Made by a program: the position numbers and the translations under genes
In this document: piece by piece, positions 17,091-63,666 of the stretch
How positions within the stretch are numbered: position 1 is the stretch's first letter
How the letters are laid out: each line of letters starts with the position of its first letter
Origin: Alphaproteobacteria bacterium
Lineage (GTDB): Bacteria > Pseudomonadota > Alphaproteobacteria > Bin95
Direction of reading: 5' to 3'
Assembly (NCBI GenBank): GCA_964291285.2
Contig: OZ219785.1
Coordinates: forward strand, 672,001 to 736,000
Length of the DNA stretch: 64,000 nucleotides
Notes under the pieces: model-generated
Databases searched by the model: none
What the model was told of the DNA's origin: nothing
What the model saw: only the letters and a program-made list of their open reading frames with translations

Positions 17091-17136
17091 GACGCGGACC
17101 CTTGATTGCAGCGGCCCGCTTGGGCCATATCGTGGC

Positions 17137-17212: not shown

Positions 17213-17237
17213 GCGGTCCTTTCATCGATCCGGCCGC

Positions 17238-17720: not shown

Positions 17721-17798
17721 CGCCGCGCCCCGGCCGGCAAGGCCCCGCAGCGCAGGGGAGGTCCCGCGCATGGAGTGGGCCCCTTGGGTCGGACAGTT

Positions 17799-18593
17799 TC
17801 AAGCGGCATTTTTGACAGGGTTGCGATGTTGTTTTTCCTCGAAGCGGTTTGGGCTCAGATATCCGAGCGCGGAGTGCAGGCGTCTGTGGTTGTAGCTGTC
17901 GATGAAGCGCGGCAGTTGCCTTGCGACGTCTTCGGCGGTCTCGAAGGCCATGGGATAGACGCCCTCGACCTTCAGGGTTTTCATGAAGCTCTCCATCATG
18001 GCGTTGTCGTAGGGGTTGGCTCGTCGTCCCATGGAGCCGACCATCCCGTGTTTGTCGAGCCGGGTCCGGTAGGCATGGGCGGCGTATTGCGAGCCCCTGT
18101 CGGAGTGGTGGATGCAGCCGGGCTGAGGGCTTCGGTTCCCGATCGCCTTGTCGAGCGCCGCGAGCGTCAGGCGCGCGTCGATGCGTTGCCCGAGCGCGTA
18201 GCCGACAATGCGGCGCGACCAGGCGTCCATGACCGCCGCCAGATAGACGAAGCCGTCCAGGATGGCGATGTAGGTCAGGTCGGCGACCCAGAGCCGGTTC
18301 GGGCCCTCGACCTCGCAGTCCCGGGACCGGTCCGGGAAGACCGGCCCGTCGTGGCCGCTGTCCGTGGTGGCGACAAAGCGGCGCTTGCGCGGCGGCTGCA
18401 GGGCGTGTTCGCGCATCAGCCGCCTGACCTTCTTGTGGTTGACGGTCCGGCCCCGGTGGCGAAGTTCCGCCTGCATGCGCCGCCAGCCATAGGCCTCGAA
18501 CTCGTCCTTGATCTCGTGCATCGCCTCGACCAGGGCGGTGTCGTCGACCGGGCTCTGCGGCTCGCGGTAACAGGTGGAGCGCGCGATCCCCAT
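17799..18593 (-). CDS. IS3-family transposase OrfB (integrase core)
   Basis: WVADLTYI, DAWSRRIVG, HHSDRGSQY, DNAMMESFMKTLK, YNHRRLHSALGY. Confidence 0.95.
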   Translation of the reverse strand: MGIARSTCYREPQSPVDDTALVEAMHEIKDEFEAYGWRRMQAELRHRGRTVNHKKVRRLMREHALQPPRKRRFVATTDSGHDGPVFPDRSRDCEVEGPNRLWVADLTYIAILDGFVYLAAVMDAWSRRIVGYALGQRIDARLTLAALDKAIGNRSPQPGCIHHSDRGSQYAAHAYRTRLDKHGMVGSMGRRANPYDNAMMESFMKTLKVEGVYPMAFETAEDVARQLPRFIDSYNHRRLHSALGYLSPNRFEEKQHRNPVKNAA

Positions 18594-18943
18594 CAGTCGG
18601 CATCCTTCGGCGACGGAGAGGCCTCGGGGCCGGCGATCACGGACATGGGCGCGCGCCTCGACCGCCGTCCTTGCCGCAAAGCCCCCTTTAGGAACTCCAG
18701 CTCCGCGGCCTGCCGGCCGACCAGCCGTTCGAGCGTCGCGATCCGGGCCTCATATGCCCGGAGCCTGTCGGCCGCCTCGGCCTCCTCATCGAAGGCCCCG
18801 GCCTCATACTTCTCCAGCCACAGCCGGATCAGGGTGCGAGACAGGTCATGACGGCGGGCCAGACCGTAAAACGTCTCGCCTGCCAGATACTCCTCAACGA
18901 CCTGGCGCTTGAAGGCCATGCTGTGCGTGCGGTGCTTCCTCAT
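18593..18943 (-). CDS. IS3-family OrfA (HTH)
   Basis: RTHSMAFKRQVVEEYLAG...LARRHDLSRTLIRLW; stop overlaps the orfB start (TGATG). Confidence 0.9.
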   Translation of the reverse strand: MRKHRTHSMAFKRQVVEEYLAGETFYGLARRHDLSRTLIRLWLEKYEAGAFDEEAEAADRLRAYEARIATLERLVGRQAAELEFLKGALRQGRRSRRAPMSVIAGPEASPSPKDAD

Positions 18944-19026
18944 CGGCGTCGATCCTTCCAATGACCGCGCACCTGTCAATTTCCTACAACAAAACTGTCC
19001 GAGACCAGGGGCCCACTCCAGCAATG

Positions 19027-19104
19027 TGTCATGAGATGTCATGTTTTGTCATGCGGGCCGGCGGGACCCCGTGCGATGTGTCATGAGATGTCATGATCTG
19101 CATG
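19027..19104. repeat. TGTCATG array A (10-bp phasing)
   Basis: TGTCATG at 19027, 19037, 19047, 19079 and 19089, plus degenerate TGCATG at 19099. Confidence 0.9.
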
Positions 19105-19186
19105 CGCGCGGCGCATATCCCGTGACCTGTTCGGGCATGGGCTCCGGGTATTCCATCCGGTGTCCCCGGCTTCGCGTCTTCGGCAT
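19091..19186 (-). CDS. Putative 31-aa ORF of repeat module 1
   Basis: GAAAGGAGAGACCC-ATG start; MPKTRSRGHRMEYPEPMPEQVTGYAPRACRS; stop lies inside the TGTCATG array. Confidence 0.35.
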   Translation of the reverse strand: MPKTRSRGHRMEYPEPMPEQVTGYAPRACRS

Positions 19187-19239
19187 GGGTCTCTCCTTTC
19201 GATCCGTCTTCGTTCCGTTCTTCCCGCCGCCCGGTTGCC

Positions 19240-19510
19240 TCAGCGGCGGGACCCTGATTCGCGCGTATCCCCCGCGGGCGCCTGTGCGCGGGCCGGCGCG
19301 CGTATCGCGGCGGCGCGGTTCGCGCGCCTGATTGCGCGCGCGAGACAGAGGGCGCACGTCTCCCGTGCGTTTCTCAGGTTTTTTTCGCGCCGGCGCGACA
19401 TGGTCGAAGAAACGGCCCCGCGCGGATGCCGTTTCCCCTCTCCCGCCTCATATGGGAGCGGACATTCGGTGTTCAAGGGTGTCAAAGGAATTAAATCTAT
19501 TTTTGTTCGT
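19240..19510 (-). repeat. Dispersed conserved leader/promoter repeat, copy 1
   Basis: Core CGGCGCGGTTCGCGCGCCTGATTGCGCGCGCGAG-N-GCACGTCTCCCGT-N-TTCTCA at 19311-19385; TGTCAA at 19480. Confidence 0.85.
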
Positions 19511-19530
19511 ATTCGATTTCCACATGGCGC

Positions 19531-19760
19531 AATCCCGACGCCCTGCCGATGCTTTGCGCCTCGGGCTCGGAGCGCGGCAACCCGCCCCGGCATGAGGCGG
19601 CGCGGGAGTAGCGGGAGGCGCTGATGAACGGCGCCGTCGCCGGCCTTCCCCGGGCTGCGATTCCGGGTTTCATCCGCATCGCCACGAATCCCGGGATTTT
19701 CGACAGGCCCCTCGACGCAAGCGGCGCCTGCACGCACGTCCGGTCATGGCGCGGTTCCCG
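19531..19760 (+). pseudogene. Decayed VapC/PIN toxin fragment
   Basis: Frame reads NPDALPMLCA...HEAARE*REALMNGAVAGLPRAAIPGFIRIATNPGIFDRPL...ACTHVRSW, with TAG at 19609-19611 where Trp is usual. Confidence 0.6.
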
Positions 19761-19856
19761 GGCCTCAGATGGGTCGATCCTCCCGCCTGACGCCGGGCCG
19801 CGGCGCTCTCCGCGACGATGGCGAACCGGGGAGATAAACGGTGAAATCCGGGCTAA

Positions 19857-21870
19857 CCCGACTTCCGCAACTCGGCTTGAGAATCGACTGATTTGACGGT
19901 TTTCCGGCGCGAGAAGTGTCGGATTTCGGTGCAGTACCTCTCGGGACCGGCTTGTAGTGCCGACCTACCCCCTTGATCGGGCTGGCGAAGATCCGGACGC
20001 TGCGCTGATGTTCGTGCGCTGCAAGAGACGCTTCAAGGACGGCAAGGAGCACCGCTACTGGAGCGTTGTGGAGAACGTCCGGGTCCACGGCGGTCGGGTT
20101 GTTCAGCGTCAGGTGCTCTATCTCGGGGAGATCAACGACAGCCAGCGAGCGGCGTGGTGCCGCTCGATCGAGGTGGTGGAGGGCAAGTCGCGATCACGGC
20201 AGATGGCGCTGTTTCCCGAGGACCGGGAGGCGCCGGCGCTGACTTGCGAAGTGGTGAAGATCGACCTCTCGCAGGTGGCGCTTCACGACCCGCGCCAGTG
20301 GGGGGCGTGCTGGCTGGCGCTGTCCTTGTGGGACCGCCTGGACCTGGACCGCTTCTGGGAAGAGCGGCTGCCGGCGAGCCGGCAAGGCACGCGGTGGCTG
20401 GACATCCTGAAGATCCAGGTCTGCTACCGGCTGATCGACCCGGGCAGCGAGTGGCGCCTTCACCGTCACTGGTATGAGCACAGCGCGCTTCGCGATCTTC
20501 TGGGTGGCGAGCGGGCGATCGCCGACGACACACTCTATCGCTGTCTCGACAAGCTGCTGGCGCACAAGCAGGGCTTCTTCTCGTTTCTGCGCGACCGCTG
20601 GGCGACGCTGTTCGAGGCGCGCTTCGACGTGCTGCTCTACGACCTGACCTCGACCTACTTCGAGAGCGATCCGCCGTTCGATGACAAGCGCCGCTTCGGC
20701 TACAGCCGGGACAAGCGGCCCGACTGCGTGCAGGTGGTGATCGCCCTGATCGTTACGCCGCAGGGCTTTCCGCTGGCCTATGAGGTGATGCCGGGCAACA
20801 CCTCCGACGACACCACGCTGGCGGCGTTCCTCAAGAAGATCGAGGATCAGTATGGCCGCTCCGAGCGGGTGTGGATCATGGACCGCGGCATCCCCACCGA
20901 GGAGACGCTGGCCGCGATGCGCGAGGGCGAGGCGCCGGTGCGCTACCTGGTGGGCACGCCCAAGGGCCGGCTGACGCGGCTCGAGAAGGTGTTCCTGGGC
21001 CTGCCCTGGCAGGAGGTGCGCCAGTCCGTGACTGTCAAGCTTCTGGTCGAGGATGGCGAGCTCTACGTCCTGGTGCGCAGCGAGGGGCGGCAGGTGAAGG
21101 AACGCGGCATGCGCCGGCGCCGGCTGAAGAGGCTGTGGCGTCGATTGGCCGAGTTGCAAGGGCAGTCGAACAGCCGGGATCAGTTGTTGCTCAAGCTCGG
21201 CGCCGCCAGGAAGGAGGCCGGCCGGGCCTGGAGCCTGGTCGACATCACCGTGCCCGGGACCGACAGCGAACTCGCCGCCAACGGCTTCTCATTCCGCCTG
21301 CAGCGCGACCGGCTGCGCCAGGTCCGCCGCCGCGAGGGCCGTTACCTGCTGCGATCCAACATGGTCGCCGAAGACCCCGCCACGCTGTGGCATCTGTACA
21401 TGCAGCTCGTCGAGATCGAGCAGGCGTTCAAGGAACTCAAGCACGACCTCGCGATCCGCCCCATCTTCCATCAGCGCCAAGAGCGCATCGAGGCGCATAT
21501 CTTCGTCTCGTTCATCGCCTACTGCCTGCTGGTGACCCTGAAGAACCTCGCCCGGCCGCGCGCCCCGGGCCTCACCCCACGCGCCATCCTTGAGGCCTTC
21601 GCCACCATCCAGATGGTGGACGTCCATCTGCCAACCACCGACGGCCGGCACCTCGTCCTGCCGCGCCACACCCGGCCGAACAAGGAGCACGAGCTACTGC
21701 TGCAACAGCTCGGCATGACCTGGCCGCAGCAACCCGCACCCCGGATCTCCGCCTGACGGCACACGGCGCCGCCTCTCCGTTCGCCGCCTTGTAGTGCCGA
21801 CCCTCGGGGAGACGATCAAGGCTATTCAATGAGTTAGCATCCTCATGACCCCCGAGTTGCGGAAGTCGGG
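19857..21870 (+). mobile_element. IS1634-family element
   Basis: Perfect 19-bp IRs CCCGACTTCCGCAACTCGG (19857-19875) and CCGAGTTGCGGAAGTCGGG (21852-21870); flanks CTAA and CTAC. Confidence 0.88.
20008..21756 (+). CDS. IS1634-family DDE transposase
   Basis: MFVRCKRRFKDGKEHRYWSVVEN, LYDLTSTYFE, GYSRDKRPD, MDRGI, IEQAFKELK, RPIFHQ, RIEAHIF. Confidence 0.92.
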   Translation: MFVRCKRRFKDGKEHRYWSVVENVRVHGGRVVQRQVLYLGEINDSQRAAWCRSIEVVEGKSRSRQMALFPEDREAPALTCEVVKIDLSQVALHDPRQWGACWLALSLWDRLDLDRFWEERLPASRQGTRWLDILKIQVCYRLIDPGSEWRLHRHWYEHSALRDLLGGERAIADDTLYRCLDKLLAHKQGFFSFLRDRWATLFEARFDVLLYDLTSTYFESDPPFDDKRRFGYSRDKRPDCVQVVIALIVTPQGFPLAYEVMPGNTSDDTTLAAFLKKIEDQYGRSERVWIMDRGIPTEETLAAMREGEAPVRYLVGTPKGRLTRLEKVFLGLPWQEVRQSVTVKLLVEDGELYVLVRSEGRQVKERGMRRRRLKRLWRRLAELQGQSNSRDQLLLKLGAARKEAGRAWSLVDITVPGTDSELAANGFSFRLQRDRLRQVRRREGRYLLRSNMVAEDPATLWHLYMQLVEIEQAFKELKHDLAIRPIFHQRQERIEAHIFVSFIAYCLLVTLKNLARPRAPGLTPRAILEAFATIQMVDVHLPTTDGRHLVLPRHTRPNKEHELLLQQLGMTWPQQPAPRISA

Positions 21871-22007
21871 CTACCACCCGTCCGCGCCTCCACCTCCGGC
21901 TGCGGCCCGGCGCTCATCTCCTCCACACAGGCCGTGACCAGGGCCGCGGCGGCCGGCGCGAGCCTTTCGGCCGGCATCGCCGCCAGTTGGGGGTCGGTTG
22001 CCCTCAT
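21871..22007 (-). pseudogene. ORF of repeat module 2, cut off by IS1634; paralog of the N-terminus of 62700-63356
   Basis: AAGGAGGAACG-ATG; MRATDPQLAAMPAERLAPAAAALVTACVEEM aligns with MTATDPRPALAAALAAKLAPAAEALAAAYAEDL. Confidence 0.6.
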
Positions 22008-22029
22008 CGTTCCTCCTTGCTCCGACGGG

Positions 22030-22295
22030 GAGCGGGTCCCTTTTCCGCGCGTATCCTGCGCGGGCGCCCGCGCCTGCCCGGGCGCGTGTCGGCGCCGGCG
22101 CGGTTCGCGCGCCTGATTGCGCGCGCGAGACGCAGGACGCACGTCTCCCGTCGGCTTCTCACGGGTTTTCAGAAACCGGCGCCGCTCGGCCGCGCGGCAC
22201 CCGGGGACGCGGCTCCGGAGTTCGCTTCCCTGGGGACCATCATATCACAATCCGCCAGATGTCAAGCCCAAAACGCGAACAAAAAGCAATTTCAT
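22030..22295 (-). repeat. Dispersed conserved leader/promoter repeat, copy 2
   Basis: Same core at 22096-22170; TGTCAA at 22260; GAACAAAAA at 22277. Confidence 0.88.
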
Positions 22296-22419
22296 TAGAT
22301 TTTTTTCAGTTCCGCAGAAATCGGAAGGACCGGCCTCCTGCCCCGGCCCGCTTCTCACCGTTCCTGGTCCGGCTCCGGCCCGTCGCGGCTTCCCCGTGTC
22401 GAGCGCCTGCCACCCGCTG

Positions 22420-23409
22420 TCAGAAGAATTGTTCCAGAACCCGGTCCGGCGGGCGGTGGCCGTCCGTGAAGGCCTTGATGTTGACGATCACCCGCTCGCC
22501 CATTTCCAGCCGGCCCTCCAGCGTGGCCGAGCCCATGTGCGGCAGCAGCACCACATTGTCGAGCTCGCGCAGCTTCGGGTCGATGGCCGGCTCGCGCTCG
22601 AACACGTCGAGCGCGGCGCCGGCGAGCCTGCCGGCGAGCAGGGCTTCCAGAAGCGCCGGCTCGTCGATCACCTCGCCGCGCGAGGTGTTGACGATGTAGG
22701 CATGCGGCTTCATCAGCGCGAGCCGCCGGCGCGACAGCAGGTGGTAGGTCGCAGGCGTGTGCGGGCAGTTGACCGACACGATGTCCATGCGCGCCAGCAT
22801 CTGGTCGAGGCTCTCCCAGTAGGTCGCCTCCAGTTCGGCCTCGATGTCGGGGTCGGCGCGACGGCGGTTGTGGTAGTGGATCGAAATGCCGAAGCCCCGC
22901 GCGCGCCGGGCCACCGCCGCCCCGATCCGGCCCATGCCGACAATGCCGAGCCGCTTGCCGTAAATCCGGTGGCCGAGCAGCGCCGTCGGCGCCCAGCCGA
23001 GCCAGCCGCCGGTCCGCACCAGGCGCTCGCCCTCGATGAGCCGGCGCGAGACCGAGAGAATGAGGGCCATGGTCATGTCCGCCGTGTCGCCCGTGAGCAC
23101 GCCGGGCGTGTTGGTGACCATGATGCCCCGCTCATGCGCGGCCGCGAGGTCGATATGGTCCACGCCCGCGCCGAAGCTCGCCAGCAGTTTGAGCCCGGGG
23201 CCGGCGGCCTCCAGGCACTCCGCGTCGATGCGGTCGGTCACGGTCGGCACCAGCACGTCCGCCCGGCCCATGGCCTCGAGCAGTTCGGAACGGTCCCATT
23301 GCCGGTCGCCGTCGTTCAGCTCGGTGCGGAACAACTCCATCATGCGCGTCTCCACCGCGTCGGGGAGCTTGCGCGTGACGATGACGAGCGGTTTGGGCGC
23401 GGTGGGCAT
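22420..23409 (-). CDS. D-glycerate dehydrogenase / glyoxylate reductase (2-hydroxyacid dehydrogenase)
   Basis: GAGVDHID, VTNTPGVLT, GIVGMGRIG, NTSRGEVIDE, LLPHMGSAT. Confidence 0.9.
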   Translation of the reverse strand: MPTAPKPLVIVTRKLPDAVETRMMELFRTELNDGDRQWDRSELLEAMGRADVLVPTVTDRIDAECLEAAGPGLKLLASFGAGVDHIDLAAAHERGIMVTNTPGVLTGDTADMTMALILSVSRRLIEGERLVRTGGWLGWAPTALLGHRIYGKRLGIVGMGRIGAAVARRARGFGISIHYHNRRRADPDIEAELEATYWESLDQMLARMDIVSVNCPHTPATYHLLSRRRLALMKPHAYIVNTSRGEVIDEPALLEALLAGRLAGAALDVFEREPAIDPKLRELDNVVLLPHMGSATLEGRLEMGERVIVNIKAFTDGHRPPDRVLEQFF

Positions 23410-23537
23410 GGACCCGGCGCCTATGGGTTGTTCGCGCAGGACGGCAAGGCGCCGCAGCCGGCAATGAAAGAGACAGGAACGGTTCCGTCCATAGCGGAAA
23501 CGCTCTAGCAAGCCGCGCGGGAGGAGTCCACCGGCCG

Positions 23538-24356
23538 TCACCCGGCGCGGGCGAGGAAGTCCCCATAGATGCGGTTGAACGCCTCGGCCCGGTCCCAATT
23601 GGGGAAGTGGCCGGCGCCCTCGATCACCGCCATTTCCGCGCCCCGGATTTCGTCCCGGTAGAGCGCCATCCGGTCCGGCGGAGTCGGCACATCGTGCTCT
23701 CCGGCGACGACCAGCGCGGGCGTCTCGATGCCGCCGAGCCGTCCATCGTAATCCATGCCGCCGATCGCCTCGCCCGAATGCACATAGCCTGCAAGCGGGT
23801 TGGCGGAGGCAATCTCCAGCAGGCGGGCATGGCTCGCCGGATTTTCCCGGCGCCACGCCTCGGTCGTGTAGCGGGCCATGATTTCTTCGGCAGCCGGCGC
23901 CATGGTGTCCCCGAGCGCGGCCAGGCGGGCGGCCGTCCGCCGGAGCCGCTCGCTGTTGGCGGCCGGCAGCACGCCCTGGGTCGCGAGGAAGGTGACGCTG
24001 GCAAGGCGCGGGGCGTGTTCCAGCGCGAGCGCGAAGCCGACCATGCCGCCGAGCGAGGAGCCGAGATAATGCGCCCGGTCGATGCCCTCCGCGTCCAGCA
24101 GGGCGACGACATCGAGCGCAAGGTCTTCCATCGCATAGGATGCGGGGCTGACAGGGCTATCGCCGTGGCCCCTGAAATCCAGCGCGATCACGCGATAGCG
24201 GCCCGCGAACGCCTCGACCTGCGGCGCATACTGGGCGCGCGAGAGGATTTGCGCATGGCCGAAGAGGAGCGCCGGCGCGCCCGCATCGCCGTGGACCTCA
24301 TAGACGGTTTGCGCCCCGTCCCGCTCCACCGTTCCGATTCGGCCCGTCGCCATCAC
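23538..24356 (-). CDS. Alpha/beta hydrolase (PcaD enol-lactonase-like)
   Basis: DFRGHGDS, GSSLGG nucleophile elbow, GEHD, AGHF. Confidence 0.8.
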   Translation of the reverse strand: MMATGRIGTVERDGAQTVYEVHGDAGAPALLFGHAQILSRAQYAPQVEAFAGRYRVIALDFRGHGDSPVSPASYAMEDLALDVVALLDAEGIDRAHYLGSSLGGMVGFALALEHAPRLASVTFLATQGVLPAANSERLRRTAARLAALGDTMAPAAEEIMARYTTEAWRRENPASHARLLEIASANPLAGYVHSGEAIGGMDYDGRLGGIETPALVVAGEHDVPTPPDRMALYRDEIRGAEMAVIEGAGHFPNWDRAEAFNRIYGDFLARAG

Positions 24357-25138
24357 GCCCTCTCCCTTTTGCGCCGCGCCGCCCGTTCCTCGAAGAAGGC
24401 GGCGGCGACGCGCTGCGGTTCGCCGTCGCTGTAGGCGGCATGCTGGTAGCGCATTGCGGCCTGCACGGTCTCGTCATACTCGGTCTGCGTGCGCTCCAGC
24501 AGGCGGCGCTTGGTCAGCCGGACGGCGAGCGGCGGCAGGGCGGCGAGTTCCCCGGCAAGTTCCATCGCGCGCGGCATCACGCGCTCCGGCGGCACGATCT
24601 CGTTGACCATGCCCCAGGCGAGGCAGGTTTCGGCATCCAGTAACCGGCCGGTGAGCGACAGTTCCACCGCGCGGGCATGGCCGACGACACGCTCGATGAT
24701 GAAGGGGCCGACCGTGCTCGGAATGCCGGCGCGCACCTCGGGCTGGCCCATGCGCACGCCCGGATGCGCGATGCGGATGTCGGCGTGGAGCGCCGTTTGC
24801 AGGCCGAAGCCGGCGGCGAGCCCGTTCAGCGCCACGACAACCGGCTTCTCCAGCGCGCGCACGGACTGGTAGAGCGCGCCCAGATGCAGGAAATGCTCCT
24901 GCACGGTCTTCTCGTCGAAACCTGCCGAATCGTTCAGGTCCTGCCCCGCCGAGAAGGCGCGCTCGCCCGCCCCGGTCAGCACGACCGCGCGCACCGCCCC
25001 GTCGCCGTTCAGCCCGTCCAGCACGCGCGGCAGCAGGTCCCGCATTTCGATGTTGAGCGCATTCAGCGCCTCGGGGCGGTTCAGGGTCACGACGGCAATG
25101 GCGCCTTCGCGGCGCTCCAGAACGGGCGATTGGGTCAT
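24353..25138 (-). CDS. Enoyl-CoA hydratase/isomerase family
   Basis: TLNRPEALNAL, AFSAGQDL, KPVVVALNG, GQPEVRAG. Confidence 0.88.
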   Translation of the reverse strand: MTQSPVLERREGAIAVVTLNRPEALNALNIEMRDLLPRVLDGLNGDGAVRAVVLTGAGERAFSAGQDLNDSAGFDEKTVQEHFLHLGALYQSVRALEKPVVVALNGLAAGFGLQTALHADIRIAHPGVRMGQPEVRAGIPSTVGPFIIERVVGHARAVELSLTGRLLDAETCLAWGMVNEIVPPERVMPRAMELAGELAALPPLAVRLTKRRLLERTQTEYDETVQAAMRYQHAAYSDGEPQRVAAAFFEERAARRKRERA

Positions 25139-25156
25139 GGGCGGTGTTGTCCTCGC

Positions 25157-27349
25157 TCAGGCGGGCTCGACGAAGCTGTCGATCAGGGTCTTGTCGCCGG
25201 AGGTCTCGAAGGCGACGGTGAGTTTCTCCCGGTCGACGGCCCGCACGGCTCCATAGCCGAACTTCTGGTGAAAGACGCGCTGGCCGACCTCGAATTGTCC
25301 GATGCGGGGCGCGCGCGGTTTCACCTCCCACGCCGGGGCGTCGATCACACGCCCGCCGCCGCCCGCGCCGTAGCGCCAGGCAGGGGCCTCGCCGAAACCG
25401 GTATCGGCCTGCCGCTCCACATGCTCGTCCGGCAACTCGTCGATGAAACGCGAGGGGAGCGGGCTGAGCCACCGCCCCATGACCATGCGGCTCATGGCGG
25501 AGGAGATCGTGACATGGCGGCGTGCGCGGGTGATGCCGACATAGGCGAGGCGGCGTTCCTCCTCCAGTCCGGCAAGCCCGTTCTCGGCGAGCGCGCGCTG
25601 GTGGGGGAACAGGCCCTCCTCCCAGCCCGGCAGGAACACGATGTCGAATTCGAGCCCCTTGGCGCCGTGGAGCGTCATCAGGGAGACGCTTTCCGCCTCG
25701 CTGCCGCCTTCGGCCTCCATCACCAGGGCGACATGCTCCAGAAACTCCTCAAGGGTGTCGAACCGGGCGATCTGCTGAACGAGTTCGCCCAGATTCTCCA
25801 GCCGGCCGGGGGCGTCGAGCCCCTTGTCCTTCCGCCACATCTCCCGGTAGCCGCTCTCGTCGAGAATCGCGTCGGCAAGGTCTGCATGGGGCTCGCTGCC
25901 GAGCCGGGCGCGCCAGTCGTCGATGGCGCGGCAGAAGCCGGCAAGCGCGTTGCGGGCCCGGGCCTTCAATTCCTCCGTCTCGACCAGCCGGCGCGCCGCC
26001 TGGCCGAGCGGAATCCGCTCGGCCCGGGCGAGGCGGTGCACCGGTTGCAGGGTCGCGTCGCCGATGCCGCGTTTCGGCAGGTTGACGATGCGCTCGAAGG
26101 CAAGGTCATCCTCGGGGAACAGGACGGCGCGCAGATAGGCGATGGCATCCCTCACCTCGCGCCGCTCGTAGAAGCGCGGGCCGCCGATGACCCGGTAATT
26201 CAGCCCGAGCGCGACGAAGCGCTCCTCGAAAGCGCGCATCTGGAATGAGGCCCGCACGAGAACCGCCATCTGCCCGAGGCTGATTCCCGACCGTTGCAGC
26301 GTCTCGATCTCCCCGCCTACCAGCCGCGCCTCCGCCTCGCCGTCCGGGACGACATGCACGGTGATCGGCCGCGAGTCCTCGCGGTCGGTCCAGAGCGTCT
26401 TGCCGAGGCGGCCGCGATTGTTGGCGATCAGCCCGGAGGCCGCGCCCAGAATATCGCCGGTCGAGCGGTAGTTCTGCTCCAGCCGGACGATCCTGGCGCC
26501 TTCGAAGTCATTCTCGAAGCGCAGGATGTTGCCGACTTCGGCTCCGCGCCATCCGTAGATCGACTGGTCGTCGTCGCCGACGCAGCAGATGTTGCGGCGG
26601 CGCTGGGCGAGCAGGCGGAGCCAGAGATACTGGGCGATATTGGTGTCCTGGTATTCGTCCACCAGTATGTAGCGGAACCGCTCCTGATATTCCGCCAGCA
26701 CCTCCGCATCGCGCTGGAAGATGGTCAGGTTGTGGAGCAGCAGGTCGCCGAAATCGACGGCGTTGAGGCCGGCAAGCCGCTCCTGGTAGGCCTCGTAAAG
26801 CGCGGGCGCGCGGCCGTTGGCGAAGTTTCCCGCCTCGTGGGCCGGCACCTGGTCCGGGCGCCACCCCTTGTCCTTCCAGCGCTGGACGATGGTCGAAAGC
26901 TGGCGCGCCGGCCAGTGCTTCGCATCCACATTCGCGTCCGCCAGCACCTGTTTGAGGAGCCGCTCCTGGTCGTCCGGGTCCAGGATCGAGAAGGAGGGCC
27001 TGAGGCCCGCCAGCTCGGGATGCCGGCGCAATATGCGCAGGCCAAGCGCGTGGAAGGTGCCGAGCCAGAGGCCGGCGCTCATCCCGCCGATCAGCGCCTC
27101 CACCCGCTCGCGCATTTCGTTCGCCGCCCGGTTGGTGAAGGTGACGGCCAGAATCTGGCTGGGCCAGGCGCGCTTCATCGCCAGCAGCAGTGCCAGCCTC
27201 GCGGTCAGCACCCGCGTCTTGCCGGTGCCCGCGCCGGAGAGCACCAGCAACGGCCCCTCCAGCGTCTCGACCGCCTCGCGCTGCGGGGGGTTCAGCCCGG
27301 CGAGCCAGGGGGCGTCGGCGGCAGGCGCGGCGGGCAGGGCGTCGTCCAT
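25157..27349 (-). CDS. uvrD: UvrD/PcrA ATP-dependent DNA helicase
   Basis: GAGTGKT, VDEYQDTN, VGDDDQSIYGWRGA, LEQNYRST, TLHGAKGLEF, EERRLAYVGITRA. Confidence 0.92.
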   Translation of the reverse strand: MDDALPAAPAADAPWLAGLNPPQREAVETLEGPLLVLSGAGTGKTRVLTARLALLLAMKRAWPSQILAVTFTNRAANEMRERVEALIGGMSAGLWLGTFHALGLRILRRHPELAGLRPSFSILDPDDQERLLKQVLADANVDAKHWPARQLSTIVQRWKDKGWRPDQVPAHEAGNFANGRAPALYEAYQERLAGLNAVDFGDLLLHNLTIFQRDAEVLAEYQERFRYILVDEYQDTNIAQYLWLRLLAQRRRNICCVGDDDQSIYGWRGAEVGNILRFENDFEGARIVRLEQNYRSTGDILGAASGLIANNRGRLGKTLWTDREDSRPITVHVVPDGEAEARLVGGEIETLQRSGISLGQMAVLVRASFQMRAFEERFVALGLNYRVIGGPRFYERREVRDAIAYLRAVLFPEDDLAFERIVNLPKRGIGDATLQPVHRLARAERIPLGQAARRLVETEELKARARNALAGFCRAIDDWRARLGSEPHADLADAILDESGYREMWRKDKGLDAPGRLENLGELVQQIARFDTLEEFLEHVALVMEAEGGSEAESVSLMTLHGAKGLEFDIVFLPGWEEGLFPHQRALAENGLAGLEEERRLAYVGITRARRHVTISSAMSRMVMGRWLSPLPSRFIDELPDEHVERQADTGFGEAPAWRYGAGGGGRVIDAPAWEVKPRAPRIGQFEVGQRVFHQKFGYGAVRAVDREKLTVAFETSGDKTLIDSFVEPA

Positions 27350-59115: not shown

Positions 59116-61199
59116 TCGCCAACGCAACCGATATCGCGTTTGCGCCGATGCTGCCCTGGTGGCTGGTCGCCGGCCTCGGCGCGGCGGCACTGGCGGCGGC
59201 GGGGCTTGCCTTCGCGCGCCGCGCCTCGGGCGGCGCGCTCCGGCTGCTGCTCTCGGCGCTGCTGGTCGCCGCGCTCCTGCGGCCGACCCTGGTCTCGGAA
59301 CTGAGGGAGCAGGAACGGGACGCGGCCATCGTCCTGGTGGACCGCTCCGGGAGCCAGGATGTGGGCGGCCGGACCCGGATGACGGACGAGGCTCTGGATG
59401 CGCTGGAGAGCCGGCTGGACTTCCTGCCCAACCTCGATGCGCTGATCGTCGAGACCGCGGCCGCGGGCGGGCCCGACCGCGGCACGGCGCTTCTGGGCGC
59501 GCTGCGCGAGGCCTGGGCGGCGGTGCCCCGGCGCCAGCGGGCCGGAGCCTTCCTCATCACCGACGGCCAGGTGCATGACGCACAGGTGGCGCCGCCTGCC
59601 GGACCGGAGGAAATGGGCCCCGTGCATGTGCTGCTGACCGGCGACCCGGAGGAGGACGGCGACCGGCGGCTGTCCGTCCGGGCGGCGCCGGCCTACGGCA
59701 TTGTCGGCAAGGATGTCGAGGTCGAGCTCCTGGTGGAGGATCTCGGGCCGGAGGGCGCCGGGCGCGGCGGCGCGCTGGTCTCGGTCTCGGCGGACGGCCG
59801 GCCCCTGAAGACGGTGGGCGTCGTCCTCGGCCGTGCCGAGCGCATCGCCCTTCCGGTGGACCGCGCGGGCGCCACCGTCTTCGAGTTCGGGGTCGAGCCG
59901 GGGCCGCGCGAGCTCAGCGCCGCCAACAACCGCGCGATCGTCACCGTGAACGGCGTGCGGGACCGCCTGAAGGTGCTGCTGGTCTCGGGGCGGCCCCATG
60001 CCGGCGAACGGGTCTGGCGCAACCTGCTGAAATCCGACCCGGCGGTGGACCTCATCCACTTCACCATTCTGCGTCCGCCCTACAAGCAGGACGCCACGCC
60101 CATCCGCGAGCTCGCGCTGATCTCCTTCCCGGTGCGCGAGCTTTTCGAGGAGCGGCTGACGGAATTCGACCTTGTGGTCTTCGACCGCTATGCGCGCCGG
60201 GGGGTGATCCCGCAGCTCTACCTCGCCAATGTCGCCGACTATGTGCGCGGCGGCGGCGCGCTTCTCGACGCTGCCGGGCCGGGCTTCGCCTCGCGCATCA
60301 CCTCGCTGCACGACTCGGCGCTCAGCGACGTCTATCCGGCCGGGCCGACGGGCCGCATTCTCACGGAGCCGTTCCGTCCGGTGCCGACGGAGGTCGGCCG
60401 GCGCCATCCGGTGACCGGGCCGCTGGTCGCCGGTTCTGCGGAGCCCCGCTGGGGCCGCTGGTTCCGCCAGATCGACGTGGAGCCGGAGAGCGGCCAGGCG
60501 CTGCTGTCGGGCGCGGAAGGCCGCCCGCTCCTGCTGGTGGACCGGGTGGGCGAAGGACGCATCGGCCTGCTGGCCAGCGACCAGGTGTGGCTGTGGGCGC
60601 GCGGCTACCAGGGCGGAGGGCCGCATGCGGAATTGCTGCGCCGCCTCGCCCACTGGCTGATGAAGGAGCCGGACCTCGAAGAGGATGCGCTGACGGCCGC
60701 AATTGCGGGCGGGCGGCTGGAGGTGGAGCGGCGCAAGGCGGAAGCCGGGCCCGAGCCGGTGACGGCGCTGGCCCCGGACGGGCGCACGCTCGCCGTCGAG
60801 CTGAAGCCGGCCGGCGCCGGGCGCTGGCGCGGCGCGCTCGAGGCGGACGCGGCCGGCGTGTGGCAGGTGCGGTCGGGAGAGAAGACGGCGGTTGCGGGCG
60901 CCGCCGTCGATAACCCGCTGGAATTCGAGGACCTGCGCCCGACCGCAGCCCGGCTCGCGCCGGTTGCGGATTCCACCGGCGGGCGGCTGCTGTGGCTTGG
61001 AAATGACGGCGTGCCGGGTGTGCGCGCCGTCAGGCCGGGCGCGCGCATGGCGGGGCGGGACTGGCTCGGCCTGCGCGACAACCGCGCCTACCGCGTGACC
61101 GGCATAGAGCGCACGCCGCTCCTGCCGCCCTGGCTGGTGCTGGCGCTGGGCGCCCTGCTGCTCGCCTGGCTCTGGCGCCGCGAGGGTCAGCGCGGATAG
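59112..61199 (+). CDS. Membrane protein with vWA-like and glutamine-amidotransferase-like domains (MoxR cluster)
   Basis: VDRSGSQ, ITDGQVHD, RNLLKSDPAVDLIHFTILRPP, WLWARG..GGGP. Confidence 0.82.
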   Translation: MIANATDIAFAPMLPWWLVAGLGAAALAAAGLAFARRASGGALRLLLSALLVAALLRPTLVSELREQERDAAIVLVDRSGSQDVGGRTRMTDEALDALESRLDFLPNLDALIVETAAAGGPDRGTALLGALREAWAAVPRRQRAGAFLITDGQVHDAQVAPPAGPEEMGPVHVLLTGDPEEDGDRRLSVRAAPAYGIVGKDVEVELLVEDLGPEGAGRGGALVSVSADGRPLKTVGVVLGRAERIALPVDRAGATVFEFGVEPGPRELSAANNRAIVTVNGVRDRLKVLLVSGRPHAGERVWRNLLKSDPAVDLIHFTILRPPYKQDATPIRELALISFPVRELFEERLTEFDLVVFDRYARRGVIPQLYLANVADYVRGGGALLDAAGPGFASRITSLHDSALSDVYPAGPTGRILTEPFRPVPTEVGRRHPVTGPLVAGSAEPRWGRWFRQIDVEPESGQALLSGAEGRPLLLVDRVGEGRIGLLASDQVWLWARGYQGGGPHAELLRRLAHWLMKEPDLEEDALTAAIAGGRLEVERRKAEAGPEPVTALAPDGRTLAVELKPAGAGRWRGALEADAAGVWQVRSGEKTAVAGAAVDNPLEFEDLRPTAARLAPVADSTGGRLLWLGNDGVPGVRAVRPGARMAGRDWLGLRDNRAYRVTGIERTPLLPPWLVLALGALLLAWLWRREGQRG

Positions 61200-61216
61200 G
61201 ACCCACTCCACCGGCA

Positions 61217-61243
61217 TGTCATGGAATGTCATGTTTTGTCATG
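61217..61243. repeat. TGTCATG array B (10-bp phasing)
   Basis: TGTCATG at 61217, 61227 and 61237. Confidence 0.9.
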
Positions 61244-61260
61244 GTCCGAGGTTCTTTATT

Positions 61261-61410
61261 CGTCACCCCCGCGAAAGCGGGGGGCCATCCCTGACTGCCG
61301 ATGCCGCCGCGGTCGGCGGAGAGCAGGTTCTACCGCTGAAGCAGCCGTGAGAGTCAGGGATGGTCCCCGGCTCCCCCGCCTTCGCGGGGGCAGGCAAGGC
61401 CGGGGTGACG
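61261..61410. repeat. REP/BIME-like palindromic element
   Basis: CGTCACCCCCGCGAAAGCGGGGG hairpin, an inverted CCCCCGCCTTCGCGGGGG hairpin at about 61373, and terminal IR CGTCACCCC/GGGGTGACG. Confidence 0.7.
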
Positions 61411-61518
61411 GTTGTGCGTCGGGCAGCGGGACCCTCCTGCGTGGAGTGGGCCCCTGGTCTCGGACAGTTTTGTTGTAGGAAATTGACAGGTGCGCGGTCA
61501 TTGGAAGGATCGACGCCG

Positions 61519-61869
61519 ATGAGGAAGCACCGCACGCACAGCATGGCCTTCAAGCGCCAGGTCGTTGAGGAGTATCTGGCAGGCGAGACGTTTTACGGTC
61601 TGGCCCGCCGTCATGACCTGTCTCGCACCCTGATCCGGCTGTGGCTGGAGAAATACGAGGCCGGCGCCTTCGATGAGGAGGCCGAGGCGGCTGACACGCT
61701 CCGGGCGTATGAGGCCCGGATCGCGACGCTCGAACGGCTGGTCGGCCGGCAGGCCGCGGAGCTGGAGTTCCTAAAGGGGGCTTTGCGGCAAGGACGGCGG
61801 TCGAGGCGCGCGCCCATGTCCGTGATCGCCGGCCCCGAGGCCTCTCCGTCGCCGAAGGATGCCGACTGA
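61519..61869 (+). CDS. IS3-family OrfA (HTH)
   Basis: Nearly identical to 18593-18943. Confidence 0.9.
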   Translation: MRKHRTHSMAFKRQVVEEYLAGETFYGLARRHDLSRTLIRLWLEKYEAGAFDEEAEAADTLRAYEARIATLERLVGRQAAELEFLKGALRQGRRSRRAPMSVIAGPEASPSPKDAD

Positions 61870-62663
61870 TGGGGATCGCGCGCTCCACCTGTTACCGCGA
61901 GCCGCAGAGCCCGGTCGACGACACCGCCCTGGTCGAGGCGATGCACGAGATCAAGGACGAGTTCGAGGCCTATGGCTGGCGGCGCATGCAGGCGGAACTT
62001 CGCCACCGGGGCCGGACCGTCAACCACAAGAAGGTCAGGCGGCTGATGCGCGAACACGCCCTGCAGCCGCCGCGCAAGCGCCGCTTTGTCGCCACCACGG
62101 ACAGCGGCCACGACGGGCCGGTCTTCCCGGACCGGTCCCGGGACTGCGAGGTCGAGGGCCCGAACCGGCTCTGGGTCGCCGACCTGACCTACATCGCCAT
62201 CCTGGACGGCTTCGTCTATCTGGCGGCGGTCATGGACGCCTGGTCGCGCCGCATTGTCGGCTACGCGCTCGGGCAACGCATCGACGCGCGCCTGACGCTC
62301 GCGGCGCTCGACAAGGCGATCGGGAACCGAAGCCCTCAGCCCGGCTGCATCCACCACTCCGACAGGGGCTCGCAATACGCCGCCCATGCCTACCGGACCC
62401 GGCTCGACAAACACGGGATGGTCGGCTCCATGGGACGACGAGCCAACCCCTACGACAACGCCATGATGGAGAGCTTCATGAAAACCCTGAAGGTCGAAGG
62501 CGTCTATCCCATGGCCTTCGAGACCGCCGATGACGTCGCAAGGCAACTGCCACGCTTCATCGACAGCTACAACCACAGACGCCTGCACTCCGCCCTCGGA
62601 TATCTGAGCCCAAACCGCTTCGAGGAGAAACAACAACGCAACCCTGTCAAAAATGCCGCGTGA
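61869..62663 (+). CDS. IS3-family transposase OrfB
   Basis: DDE integrase core, nearly identical to 17799-18593. Confidence 0.95.
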   Translation: MGIARSTCYREPQSPVDDTALVEAMHEIKDEFEAYGWRRMQAELRHRGRTVNHKKVRRLMREHALQPPRKRRFVATTDSGHDGPVFPDRSRDCEVEGPNRLWVADLTYIAILDGFVYLAAVMDAWSRRIVGYALGQRIDARLTLAALDKAIGNRSPQPGCIHHSDRGSQYAAHAYRTRLDKHGMVGSMGRRANPYDNAMMESFMKTLKVEGVYPMAFETADDVARQLPRFIDSYNHRRLHSALGYLSPNRFEEKQQRNPVKNAA

Positions 62664-62697
62664 AACTGTCCGACCCAAGGGGCCCACTCCAGCGGAA

Positions 62698-62735
62698 TGT
62701 CATGAAATGTCATGTTCCGGCGGCGGCATGTCATG
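62698..62735. repeat. TGTCATG array C
   Basis: TGTCATG at 62698, 62708 and 62729. Confidence 0.88.
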
Positions 62736-63356
62736 GTCCGCCGCTGCGGCGTCTTCCCGCCCGCCGCCGTGTCCGCCTGTGCGTGCCAGTGCGGCCAGGG
62801 CTTCGGCTTCCTCCTCCTGGCGTTCCTCTTCGGCTTCGCGGCGGTCCAGCCGTTCGAGCCATGCGTAGAACTCGGGCGTCCTGAGCTTGCCGACATATTT
62901 GCGCCGCCCGTGGTGGTATTCGTCCTCGCTGCCGTCATAGTCGGCCTCGTCGGGGACGAGCGGTCCGAAGCGGCGCTCCTGCTCGGCATACCAGGCGCGG
63001 AACTCGGGGGTCTCCTGGCTGCCGACATAGACCTCGCTGTGGAAGTGGAACTCGTCCTCGCTGCCGTCGTAATCGTCCTCTTCCGGGGGCGGCGGCTCCC
63101 ACGGCTCCTCTTCGGGTTCCGGGGCGGGCGGTTCGGGCAGGTGGGCGCCGGCCCAGTCGAGCAGGGCGAGGAGCTTGTGCAGGTGGTCGAGCTGGGCGCG
63201 GGCGGCGCGGTGGTGGTCGGCGCGGGCGCGGTCGTCGGGGGGCGGGGGCTCCGGGTCCAGGTCTTCGGCATAGGCAGCGGCGAGGGCTTCGGCGGCGGGC
63301 GCGAGCTTTGCGGCGAGCGCCGCCGCCAGTGCGGGCCGGGGGTCGGTTGCGGTCAT
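62700..63356 (-). CDS. Hypothetical acidic 218-aa protein with an internal tandem repeat (ORF of repeat module 3)
   Basis: GAAGGAG SD; two DYDGSEDE..H....YVG...TPEF.AW....(E/D)RR units; stop lies inside the TGTCATG array. Confidence 0.7.
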   Translation of the reverse strand: MTATDPRPALAAALAAKLAPAAEALAAAYAEDLDPEPPPPDDRARADHHRAARAQLDHLHKLLALLDWAGAHLPEPPAPEPEEEPWEPPPPEEDDYDGSEDEFHFHSEVYVGSQETPEFRAWYAEQERRFGPLVPDEADYDGSEDEYHHGRRKYVGKLRTPEFYAWLERLDRREAEEERQEEEAEALAALARTGGHGGGREDAAAADHDMPPPEHDIS

Positions 63357-63374
63357 CCATGTCTCCTTCCGGTC

Positions 63375-63632
63375 CGGGAGCGGCGGACCCTTTGCCGCGC
63401 GCGTTTCGCGTGTGTGCGCGCCTGCGCGTCGGCGCCGGCGCGGTTCGCACGCCTGATTGCGCGCGCGAGGCGGCGGGCGCACGTCTCCCGTCGGTTTCTC
63501 AGGGGGTTTTCGAACATGGCGCCGCCCGGCCATGGCGGCGCCGGAGAAACGGCTTCGGACACCGCCTCTCCGGGTCCTATATCAGTATATTTTCCCTGAT
63601 GTCAAGCGATATCAGGAACAAAAAATGAAAAT
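63375..63632 (-). repeat. Dispersed conserved leader/promoter repeat, copy 3
   Basis: Core at 63436-63510; TGTCAA at 63600; GAAC-N7-GAAA at 63616-63630. Confidence 0.88.
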
Positions 63633-63666
63633 TCTTGGATTTTCACAAAACCCCGGCCGCGCCGGA

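Follow-up and report, generated by a model that had tools for sequence, protein, structure and literature searches.

A lineage-restricted family of small expression cassettes with small-terminase-like cargo and phased CATGACA arrays in an alphaproteobacterial genome

Results

Cassette copies in the window

Three minus-strand copies of a multi-part module had been proposed in a first-pass annotation of the window (the whole stretch of 64,000 nucleotides that was analysed), and rereading of the sequence found all three where they had been placed. They are members of a lineage-restricted family of approximately 96 small expression cassettes. The 5′ edge and promoter of copy 3 (63577-63666, minus strand) were read from the sequence and show the same pattern in an alignment of 85 copies; the edge was set from empty orthologous sites in genomes G006, G007 and G012. 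The promoter comprises an AT-rich patch with TTTTTTGTTC (63616-63626), a −35 TTGACA (63600-63605) and, 17 nt downstream of it, a −10-like ATATAG (63577-63582). A GC-rich leader of approximately 220 nt (63357-63576) follows on the same strand, with a 5′ hairpin, a nearly invariant core recovered as an nhmmer match (63420-63522), a GGGTCCGCC box (63376-63390) and the Shine–Dalgarno (SD) sequence AAGGAG (63363-63368). The cargo is a 218-aa ORF (62700-63356, minus strand; MTATDPRP...EHDIS*), and its TGA stop lies inside array A (62698-62735), which is formed by three CATGACA units (62729-62735, 62708-62714 and 62698-62704). The distal part (61199-61441, minus strand) contains a GGAGGGTCCCGC box, a palindromic insert of approximately 165 bp with GTCACCCC... 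ends, array B (61217-61243), whose three units are spaced by 10 bp, and a terminal TGGAGTGGGTCC (61199-61210), and adjoins the stop codon of the neighbouring gene. The interval 61200-63640 had been described as one module; the cassette itself was recovered, and the interval also contains an IS3-family insertion sequence (61442-62691, plus strand; OrfA with HTH_Tnp_1, OrfB with rve and a match to NF033516), which together with the palindromic insert separates array A from array B.

Copy 2 (21874-22310, minus strand) retains the promoter (TTGACA at 22260-22265), the leader (core at 22078-22182), the SD and the start of an MTATDP-family ORF, with its ATG at 22005-22007 and approximately 44 codons left. 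Its interruption by IS1634 was confirmed: an IS1634-family element (19852-21873, plus strand) cuts the copy at about 21873, and its transposase matches NF033559 with 305 bits. Copy 1 (19021-19520, minus strand) is a short derivative with a promoter (TTGACA at 19480-19485), a leader (core at 19295-19396), a 31-aa mini-ORF (19091-19186), array A (19079-19095), a GGGGTCCCGCC box and array B (19027-19053). A second IS3-family copy (17770-19020, minus strand), opposite in orientation to that in copy 3, begins 6 nt past the last heptamer of array B of copy 1.

A repeat search within the window returned one 81-nt core repeat family at 19307, 22092 and 63432 with 85-88% identity, in agreement with the near-identical core of about 75 bp noticed before, and a 193-nt stretch common to copies 2 and 3 with 74% identity. 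The TTGACA and its accompanying motif were also recognised in each copy, with TTTTTGTTC 5′ of the hexamer in copies 2 and 3 and the inverted GAACAAAAA in copy 1, as were a GGGTCC(C)GCC-type box and an SD. The ORFs of copies 1 and 3 stop within a CATGACA unit, as had been claimed. The ORF had further been said to differ between copies; this was not upheld, because copies 2 and 3 carry ORFs of a single family (MTATDP / MRATDP). The period of the CATGACA repeat is exactly 10 bp, which corrects the earlier account.

Number, order and parts of the cassettes genome-wide

A profile search found 96 copies of the leader core in the 6.1 Mb genome. The two strands contain 456 and 445 CATGACA heptamers, where approximately 158 per strand would be expected, and these form 150 clusters (arrays with at least two units within 30 nt), against approximately 0.25 expected by our own estimate from the CATGACA counts. 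Many more copies genome-wide had been predicted from the window, and these 96 cores and 150 arrays bear the prediction out. Core and arrays co-occur in a fixed order: 85 of the 96 cores have at least two same-strand heptamers within 2.6 kb downstream, and 123 of the 150 arrays come after a core. The first-pass annotation had named beforehand what would speak against such a family, and the genome holds more than three copies, in fixed order, with a core that is not an IS or MITE end and no Rfam match either at E ≤ 1 on two cassette-bearing loci or for the family at the gathering score in the window.

The cassettes are 0.35-1.5 kb in size and share an order of parts, namely, a promoter of the sigma-70 type preceded by an AT-rich patch, a leader, a box and SD, an ORF, arrays and a box. 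The leader is GC-rich and approximately 200 nt long, and its central 45 nt or so are almost invariant; between leader and ORF stand a GGGTCCCGCC-type box and an SD. One or two arrays are present in each cassette, with two to three CATGACA units each at 10 bp spacing, and another box stands after them. The C(A/C)TGAA(A/C) motif at the 5′ edge is not general (22 of 85 cassettes, versus 12 of 85 for its reverse complement). What had been called variable cargo falls into two families of conserved proteins, a family of mini-ORFs (31-41 aa) and the decay products of these. The remaining copies are mostly remnants, shortened by internal deletion or disrupted by an IS, in which both ends are retained. 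This agrees with the earlier view of most copies as non-autonomous derivatives, and the deletion derivatives have lost neither the arrays nor the first 20 or so codons. Thirteen genomic copies, copy 2 of the window included, align at 90% identity or more to the 5′ 321 nt of copy 2, and their flanks are unrelated in the members displayed in the alignment.

With three units 10 bp apart, an ATG and a TGA (overlapping as ATGA) fall in each of the three frames. This arrangement would suit a mobile donor of promoters and start codons, whose outward promoter and repeat ATGs would drive or re-start translation of the downstream gene, and an array ATG is in frame with a coding-like downstream ORF of at least 100 aa in 21 of the 150 arrays (IS3 orfA in 4). 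However, these 21 are an uncontrolled count in a 68% GC genome, where long open frames are common; the cassettes have no orientation preference, with the next gene downstream running with the cassette in 43 cases and against it in 41 (crude ORF-based calls of approximately 3,100 genes); and the conserved cargo genes are left unexplained. We consider such a donor function very unlikely.

Distribution across genomes

The presence of cassettes varies from one congeneric species to another and between genomes at orthologous sites; they sit in intergenic positions at synteny breakpoints. Copy 3 of the window has empty orthologous sites in the three genomes that set its edge, and two further copies have empty orthologous sites in G007. 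Many copies occupy orthologous positions in other species, which indicates that most copies are old and immobile. In 3 of 15 congeners, and in all 9 of the other genera sampled, the search found no core. At least 35 core matches were found in each of two genomes without a Terminase_2 match (G008 and G022); cassettes therefore persist without the protein described below. A literature search for a terminase small subunit in sponge-symbiont repeats and for CATGACA direct repeats found nothing on the element, and the family matches no described mobile element.

Cargo proteins

Ten intact copies encode a 329-aa protein with an N-terminal small-terminase HTH (Terminase_2; SF6/SPP1 G1P-like). The protein (P0001) matched Pfam Terminase_2 (PF03592) over residues 11-74 with an E-value of 1.4e-11, and also matched PHROG terS families. 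A long copy with an HUH, DDE, RT or recombinase gene had been suggested as a possible source of the family; none is present here, and it is this small-terminase-like HTH protein that the long copies encode. The AF2 model has pLDDT above 90 over residues 11-110, including a long helix (52-90) and a second helix (93-106), and remote relatives align over residues 9-120 or so. The best Foldseek matches were SF6/SPP1-like small terminases, namely, 4zc3 (TM 0.85, rmsd 1.6 Å, 39% identity) and 2cmp (TM 0.82), with ranges of 1.4-1.6 Å and 39-40% identity over the two; the full-length match to 3zqq was poor (TM 0.37-0.39, rmsd 8-12 Å). The Foldseek E-values were weak (0.14-0.4) because approximately one-third of the model is terminase-like. 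The first 120 or so residues comprise the small-terminase HTH and a predicted helical core, and the nearest solved relative is the SF6/SPP1-type G1P. Phage homologues reach at most 50% identity over at most 36% of the protein.

Codon-level figures (dN/dS 0.22 in the N-terminal part and 0.36 in the C-terminal part; GC3 0.85-0.90) indicate a real gene under purifying selection. Among 80 related loci from other MAGs, 56 have the core upstream and in 60 the ORF ends with at least two exact CATGACA; of the 20 loci where it does not, 7 are cut inside the gene. At homologous loci of 45-60% identity in other MAGs, the recognition helix is nearly invariant, and 10-bp-phased NNTGAC(A/G) units follow the gene in at least seven readable cases.

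All 12 Terminase_2 matches of the genome fall in stand-alone cassettes, and the 329-aa gene has no large terminase beside it as in a phage or prophage packaging operon. The large-terminase ATPase families Terminase_6N, TerL_ATPase, Terminase_3 and GpA_ATPase have no match in the genome. The sole TerL_nuclease-bearing gene (C2:89785-91365) lies approximately 13 kb from the nearest cassette gene (Terminase_2 match at C2:76639-76827) and has sporadic relatives in just 4 of 15 congeners. These two observations make a resident packaging partner unlikely, and a domesticated GTA with a resident terminase was rejected on the distribution of this gene.

Approximately seven copies, copy 3 of the window included, encode the second conserved protein, of 190-235 aa and of no known family. 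The 218-aa family has 147 homologues and 27 invariant columns; the 218-aa protein has no match in Pfam, NCBIfam or PADLOC, and a fold search gave no PDB match at E ≤ 0.001. Zero PADLOC families (anti-phage defence profiles) were returned for either cargo protein.

Promoter and leader

The alphaproteobacterial LexA box has the consensus GTTC-N7-GTTC or GAAC-N7-GAAC. The promoter had been described as SOS-like, and a TTGTTC or GAACAA motif does stand upstream of the −35 in 51 of 85 copies, as a DNA-damage (LexA/SOS) inducible cassette might have it. Neither direct repeat occurs in any of the 85 promoter regions, each region has at most one GTTC, and the position and orientation of the motif relative to the −35 differ between subfamilies. 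Induction through LexA is thus largely refuted at the level of sequence, and we consider it highly improbable.

Folding of the leader exceeded that of shuffled sequences (z-scores of −2.95 and −2.06), and its 5′ hairpin has compensatory changes in 4 of 15 predicted pairs. Across 115 distinct sequences from several species the core hardly varies; it has no 3-nt periodicity and is kept, with the promoter, in decayed copies. These features favour a host regulon or a cis-regulatory or small RNA family, in which the leader would be functional as a riboregulator, protein sponge or antitermination site and the cassettes would be paralogous genes. However, RNAalifold on a 78-sequence leader alignment and on the core gave just short, almost invariant helices; the core is conserved in sequence and not by covariation, and its pairs almost never vary. 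When two cassette-bearing loci of this genome (L001 and L004) were compared with Rfam, nothing matched at E ≤ 1, and in the window a tRNA was the only match at the gathering score. A look-up of data sets holding 62693-63660 listed none of RNA, and its small-share sponge and coral metagenome entries were left out as evidence of habitat. The failure to find the core in 3 of 15 congeners and the empty sites also speak against a core host function, and the 3′ arrays and the terminase-like cargo would have no explanation. We therefore leave a regulon or RNA family a small chance and regard it as unlikely. The leader core is more invariant than coding sequence, and the terS-pac model discussed below gives no account of this.

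Cassette ends, insertion sequences and copying route

IS3-family elements adjoin the arrays in 10 of 10 pieces, and the gap is 6 nt in all 7 pieces whose terminal repeat faces the 3′ side of the array. The IS3 terminal repeat, TGGAGTGGGCCC, follows 24 of the 150 arrays at 6-7 nt. Combined with the high copy number, the internal deletions that keep both ends and the presence or absence at orthologous sites, these observations resemble a conventional non-autonomous (MITE-like) transposon that is moved in trans, for example by the IS3-family element, whose terminal repeat is similar to the 3′ box of the cassette. Such a transposon is nevertheless quite unlikely on the following evidence. The inverted IS3 repeat is present on the 5′ side in 0 of 96 cassettes. 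General terminal inverted repeats were not found, with a mean longest inverted 5′/3′ match of 7.07 versus 6.69 in shuffled controls (73 cassettes), and flank direct repeats were not above mismatched controls (7.14 versus 7.05; 73 cassettes), in a comparison that target duplications shorter than approximately 5 bp would escape. The 12-mers without an adjoining IS continue 13-30 nt into the left or right IS end, thereby resembling IS stubs and not cassette ends. The IS3 element at 61442-62691 has its own 3-bp duplication (GCG), lies 6 nt past the last heptamer of array A and is lacking from the orthologous cassette in G002; as judged from these sequences, it is a secondary insertion.

Clean filled-versus-empty comparisons were obtained for copy 3 of the window (against G006, G007 and G012) and for two further cassettes (against G007), and the three gave no consistent duplication. 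The 5′ edge of the cassette varies, being approximately 35 nt or approximately 110 nt upstream of TTGTTC in two empty-site comparisons. Comparison of another locus (L031) with an empty site in G000 showed many other small repeats, and the cassette edges were blurred. One cassette in another MAG (L049) lies within a 1.68-kb insert with 26-bp inverted ends and a 22-bp duplication; its ends belong to a different IS of approximately 3.1 kb, which makes it a one-off passenger event, and it was rejected as the mechanism of the family.

No cassette codes for a transposase. The longest intact cassettes encode only the terminase-like or the 190-235-aa protein, consistent with the earlier statement that no dedicated recombinase or transposase is encoded. 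The 562-aa ORFs in cassettes are IS1634 insertions, and sequence of this IS1634-family element occurs in 55 near-identical whole or partial pieces in the genome.

Discussion

The empty orthologous sites, the failure to find the core in 3 of 15 congeners and in the other genera sampled, and the subfamily of 13 copies akin to copy 2 point to a selfish element rather than a core function. We tentatively read the family as selfish, phage-derived, terS-pac-like cassettes, and give this reading slightly less than an even chance. The ancestor would have been a phage terS-pac packaging module that turned selfish in the chromosome. Oligomers of the terminase-like protein would bind the helically phased heptamers of its own cassette and, putatively, the arrays of decayed copies in trans, and the promoter, leader core and arrays would be cis-acting parts kept by selection. 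Copies would arise by a DNA-level route, with no element-encoded transposase, inverted ends or detectable target duplication. Recruitment of a large terminase, regulation of the cassette or its copying may each be candidate roles of the protein–array complex.

The cassettes resemble the terS-pac modules of SPP1 and SF6 in the HTH and predicted helical-core fold (Terminase_2; 4zc3, 2cmp, 3zqq) and in short direct repeat sets at the gene itself (PMC4737164). The same paper describes the SPP1 pac site as three sets of direct repeats at the small-terminase gene, and reports little preference of the isolated SF6 DNA-binding domain for pac repeats, which counts against our model (PMC4737164). The cassette gene differs in being chromosomal and multi-copy (10 intact), in a 200-aa acidic/basic C-terminal extension of its protein and in having no adjacent large terminase, portal or capsid genes; its repeats are placed at the 3′ end, and approximately 85 copies have such repeats without the gene.

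Elements of the Correia, BOX and ERIC type are promoter-bearing dispersed repeats or MITEs. The cassettes are likewise small, high-copy, modular, intergenic, promoter-bearing, situated at synteny breakpoints and free of a transposase. In contrast to those elements, they have no terminal inverted repeats or target duplications, their architecture is directional and non-palindromic, and their master copies carry conserved protein-coding genes that evolve under purifying selection.

Phage satellites of the SaPI/PICI type carry their own small terminase. The cassettes share with them a small-terminase homologue that stands outside a phage beside presumed recognition repeats and could redirect helper packaging. 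Unlike these satellites, the cassettes have no integrase, replication or capsid-remodelling genes, measure 0.35-1.5 kb instead of several kb or more, number approximately 100 dispersed units instead of one island, and encode proteins without a PADLOC or NCBIfam match.

A packaging role could also be taken literally, with the family forming a network of pac-like sites across the genome on which an orphan small terminase acts; as a whole, we hold this to be improbable. During activity of a pac-type phage or of a sporadic capsid-forming element, the TerS-like protein would mark approximately 100-150 chromosomal loci for the incoming large terminase, and headful packaging would then begin throughout the chromosome of the host. 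Host DNA and cassettes would be transduced at high frequency, thereby allowing spread without a transposase, and packaging of the phage genome would be sabotaged at the same time. If true, the network would amount to a new type of selfish element or defence, one made out of a packaging signal and not out of a recombinase.

Small terminases are, to our knowledge, known almost only as phage packaging factors. If the protein of the preferred terS-pac-like reading does bind the phased heptamers, it would be a small terminase acting outside a virus, in approximately 100 chromosomal cassettes. To the dispersed repeats of bacteria the family would add a class in which the product of the master copies is a DNA-binding protein and not a transposase. 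The family also poses the question of how DNA multiplies in a genome without a recombinase of its own. For annotation, the approximately 100 strong promoters of these MAGs, and the many genes called 'terminase small subunit' in them, should not be read as signs of prophages. Finally, the cassettes mark synteny breakpoints and attract two IS families, and thereby shape genome architecture in the lineage.

Anatomy and genome-wide distribution of the cassette family

Direct reading of the window confirmed the three minus-strand copies described in the first-pass annotation, at 19021..19520 (copy 1), 21874..22310 (copy 2) and 61199..63666 (copy 3). A repeat search of the window resolved the core, the near-invariant part of the cassette leader, as a single 81-nt repeat family (19307, 22092 and 63432; 85–88% identity), and the arrays of the heptamer CATGACA as a separate repeat family. 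In each window copy, read 5′ to 3′, an AT-rich patch containing TTTTTGTTC (inverted in copy 1) is followed by TTGACA, the GC-rich leader, a box of the GGGTCC(C)GCC type, AAGGAG, an ORF and finally CATGACA units spaced exactly 10 bp apart. Copy 2 is indeed cut by an IS1634-family element (NF033559, 305 bits). The interval 61200–63640 had been taken as one module; copy 3 does lie there, and the interval itself is composite. An IS3-family element (61442–62691; rve, HTH_Tnp_1, NF033516; 3-bp duplication GCG) separates array A (62698–62735) from a box, a palindromic, roughly 165-bp insert (61255–61415) and array B (61217–61243). The insert, with GTCACCCC... ends, has the box on one side and array B on the other. 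It is shared by the orthologous cassette of a relative (G002) and has only one other full-length copy and 21 partial matches in the genome; ends of a similar GTCACCCCGG type are seen again in the flanks of cassettes.

Profile searching with nhmmer recovered 96 copies of the core in the genome (6.13 Mb, 68% GC, 5 contigs). CATGACA occurs 456 and 445 times per strand against about 158 expected, and forms 150 clusters of at least two, where well below one would be expected by chance. At least two same-strand heptamers lie within 2.6 kb downstream of 85 of the 96 cores, and 123 of the 150 arrays are downstream of a core; the 27 orphan arrays include IS-separated fragments and about six unrelated pairs. 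Contrary to all three outcomes that the first-pass annotation named as refuting its reading, the family extends beyond the three window copies, keeps its parts in fixed order and has no known IS, MITE or Rfam identity. Thirteen copies, including copy 2, align at 90% or more to the 5′ 321 nt of copy 2, and the flanks are unrelated among the subset of these displayed; on sequence comparison, this subfamily indicates a fairly recent multiplication.

Promoter, leader and arrays

Alignment of 85 upstream regions revealed a TTGACA-like −35 element, a TATGAT or TAnnAT −10 element, and an AT-rich patch in which TTGTTC and GAAATAATTC-like motifs vary in order by subfamily. The earlier proposal of an SOS-like promoter was not supported: the alphaproteobacterial LexA-type direct repeat occurred in none of these 85 regions. 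The leader folds somewhat better than shuffled sequences (z −2.95 and −2.06), and compensatory changes were present in 4 of the 15 predicted pairs of its 5′ hairpin. Across 115 distinct sequences, the central core (GCAAUCAGGCGCGCGAACCGCGCCG with neighbouring positions) hardly varies and lacks codon periodicity, and two cassette loci gave no Rfam match even at E ≤ 1. Judged by this pattern, the core is under sequence-specific constraint, at the RNA or the DNA level.

Three CATGACA units at 10-bp spacing place a TGA stop and an overlapping ATG start (ATGA) in all three frames, as at 61217–61243. As a result, intact and decayed cassette ORFs alike all end in ..HD(K/I)(T/S/P)*. That the array ATGs start downstream genes is possible but weakly supported; an array ATG is in frame with a downstream ORF in 21 of 150 arrays, an uncontrolled count.

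Cargo proteins

The cassette ORFs of the genome sort into few families. Ten copies encode a protein of 329–336 aa, represented by the 329-aa P0001, whose residues 11–74 match Pfam Terminase_2 (E 1.4e-11); PHROG small-terminase families match as well, and the genome's 12 Terminase_2 matches are all inside cassettes. In about nine more copies the gene is internally deleted (99, 89, 81, 57, 51 aa and so on). By its sequence, the terminase-like gene is real, with dN/dS of 0.22 at residues 1–125 (295 pairs) and 0.36 in the rest (252 pairs), and GC3 of 0.85–0.90. The AF2 model (pLDDT > 90 at residues 11–110) predicts three short helices, then a long one with a return helix, and a second helical hairpin at 146–199. 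Its top Foldseek matches were of the SF6/SPP1-type small terminase, namely, the DNA-binding domains 4zc3 (TM 0.85) and 2cmp (TM 0.82), at 39–40% identity, with full-length 3zqq also among the best; E-values were weak (0.14–0.4) because most of the model is outside the small-terminase fold. Relatives on phage or viral contigs were distant only (at most 50% identity over at most 36% of the protein). A lysine/arginine run, KKQKKKKGKKRR, is present in most of the terminase-like copies.

A second family, a 190–235-aa protein (MTATDPRP...), is encoded by about seven copies including copy 3, and many truncated copies exist, copy 2 among them. It has 147 homologues, none named, with 27 invariant columns; structure prediction gives a helical hairpin and two beta-hairpin–helix repeats (pLDDT 80.7), and no match was found in PDB, Pfam, NCBIfam or PADLOC. 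The motif TPEF.AW..RQ.RR is recurrent, and some copies have RRRKRKRREKRRQK-like runs. Both cargo proteins bear long acidic, proline-rich tails (P0001 residues 125–329; window ORF 62700–63356). A 31–41-aa mini-ORF occupies about 15 copies, including copy 1.

Occurrence in related genomes

Many alphaproteobacterial MAGs carry the terminase-like gene in multiple copies. Among 80 loci kept from 118 confirmed stretches, 56 have a core upstream of the gene and 60 have at least two exact CATGACA at the ORF end; seven of the 20 others are cut inside the gene. At several loci of 45–60% protein identity in other MAGs (seven readable cases), 10-bp-phased NNTGAC(A/G) units still follow the gene, and the recognition helix of the HTH hardly changes. 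Core DNA was present in 12 of 15 genus relatives, not found in G001, G003 and G021, and found in none of nine other genera sampled. Terminase_2 was detected in 10 of the 15 congeners; G008 and G022 have cores and no Terminase_2 gene. G001, G003 and G021, which yielded neither the core nor the terminase-like gene, have genomes at the small end of the sample (3.4–3.8 Mb); carrier genomes range from 3.5 to 6.1 Mb, the largest being the present one with 96 cores.

Insertion sites and associated insertion sequences

The copy 3 site is empty in three relatives (G006, G007 and G012), where the convergent genes on either side are separated by 6 nt; the gap between them is 2.47 kb here, G002 carries an orthologous cassette without IS3, and G004 has heptamer arrays at this site. 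The cassettes at C3:1639767 and C3:1652594 are likewise missing at syntenic G007 sites, many cassettes occupy orthologous positions in other species, and synteny blocks against five congeners break at cassettes in all four regions examined. Within 14582–27000 of the window, a tRNA (17137–17209) closes a conserved block, and the next 4.7 kb (IS3, copy 1, IS1634, copy 2) joins two blocks far apart in every congener examined.

The 3′ edge of the cassettes is sharp, directly past the box after the last array, and the 5′ edge is variable, its distance upstream of TTGTTC being about 35 nt at one site and about 110 nt at another. Terminal inverted repeats were absent (7.07 versus 6.69 in shuffled controls), flank duplications did not exceed the control (7.14 versus 7.05), and none of 96 cassettes had an IS3-type repeat at its 5′ side. 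A 1.68-kb insert in another MAG (L049 1057–2740) contains an entire cassette; it has 26-bp inverted repeats (GGTAGTGTC.C.GTTTGAC) at its ends and is flanked by a palindromic target duplicated over 22 bp. An element of about 3.1 kb with these same ends occurs in the present genome (C3:12088–15226 and 1268788–1271925).

All ten IS3-family pieces in the genome adjoin CATGACA arrays, including those at 17770–19020 and 61442–62691. In seven whole copies facing the 3′ side of an array, in either orientation, the IS end is exactly 6 nt past the last heptamer. An IS-end 12-mer lies 6–7 nt past the last heptamer in 24 of 150 arrays, comprising these seven and 17 stubs of 13–30 nt from either IS end. 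The cassette box (C/T)GGAG.GGGTCCCGCC resembles the IS3 end TGGAGTGGGCCCC, which suggests position-specific, end-mimic targeting of the box by IS3. The IS1634-family element (19852–21873) has 55 near-identical pieces (99.6–100%), whole or partial, 17 of them no more than 500 bp from a core or array, a zone covering 2.8% of the genome; several interrupt cassettes at comparable points, just past the leader.

A putative terS-pac-like element and candidate packaging partners

The behaviour of the cassette family is that of a selfish element confined to its lineage: dispensable in some congeners, polymorphic in site and prone to internal-deletion decay with both ends kept. The features that define MITEs or ISs are all absent. 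By analogy, intact members resemble a terS-pac module in isolation. According to PMC4737164, the SPP1 pac site consists of three direct-repeat sets at the small-terminase gene, and the isolated SF6 domain has little specificity for pac repeats; the cassettes similarly place phased heptamers at a terminase-like gene. Given this likeness and the selfish behaviour, we tentatively propose, at slightly less than even confidence, that an oligomer of the terminase-like protein would bind the helically phased heptamers of its own cassette in cis and those of other copies in trans, with promoter, core and arrays as cis parts under selection. A chromosome-wide network of pac sites that hijacks incoming terminases, leading to transduction, phage interference or both, seems improbable to us; if true, cassettes would spread by transduction and hence without a transposase.

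Searches of the genome for Terminase_6N, TerL_ATPase, Terminase_3 and GpA_ATPase were negative. On the minus strand of C2, a small phage-like cluster (C2:85300–91400; L106 11332–17365) encodes a 527-aa protein with TerL_nuclease, an HNH endonuclease, a 454-aa capsid-like and a 371-aa portal-like protein, and no small-terminase gene is beside it. Relatives of its TerL gene occur in only 4 of 15 congeners, and a conserved resident packaging partner of the GTA-like kind is therefore unlikely. The cluster adjoins a DUF5906 fragment and a DDE transposase.
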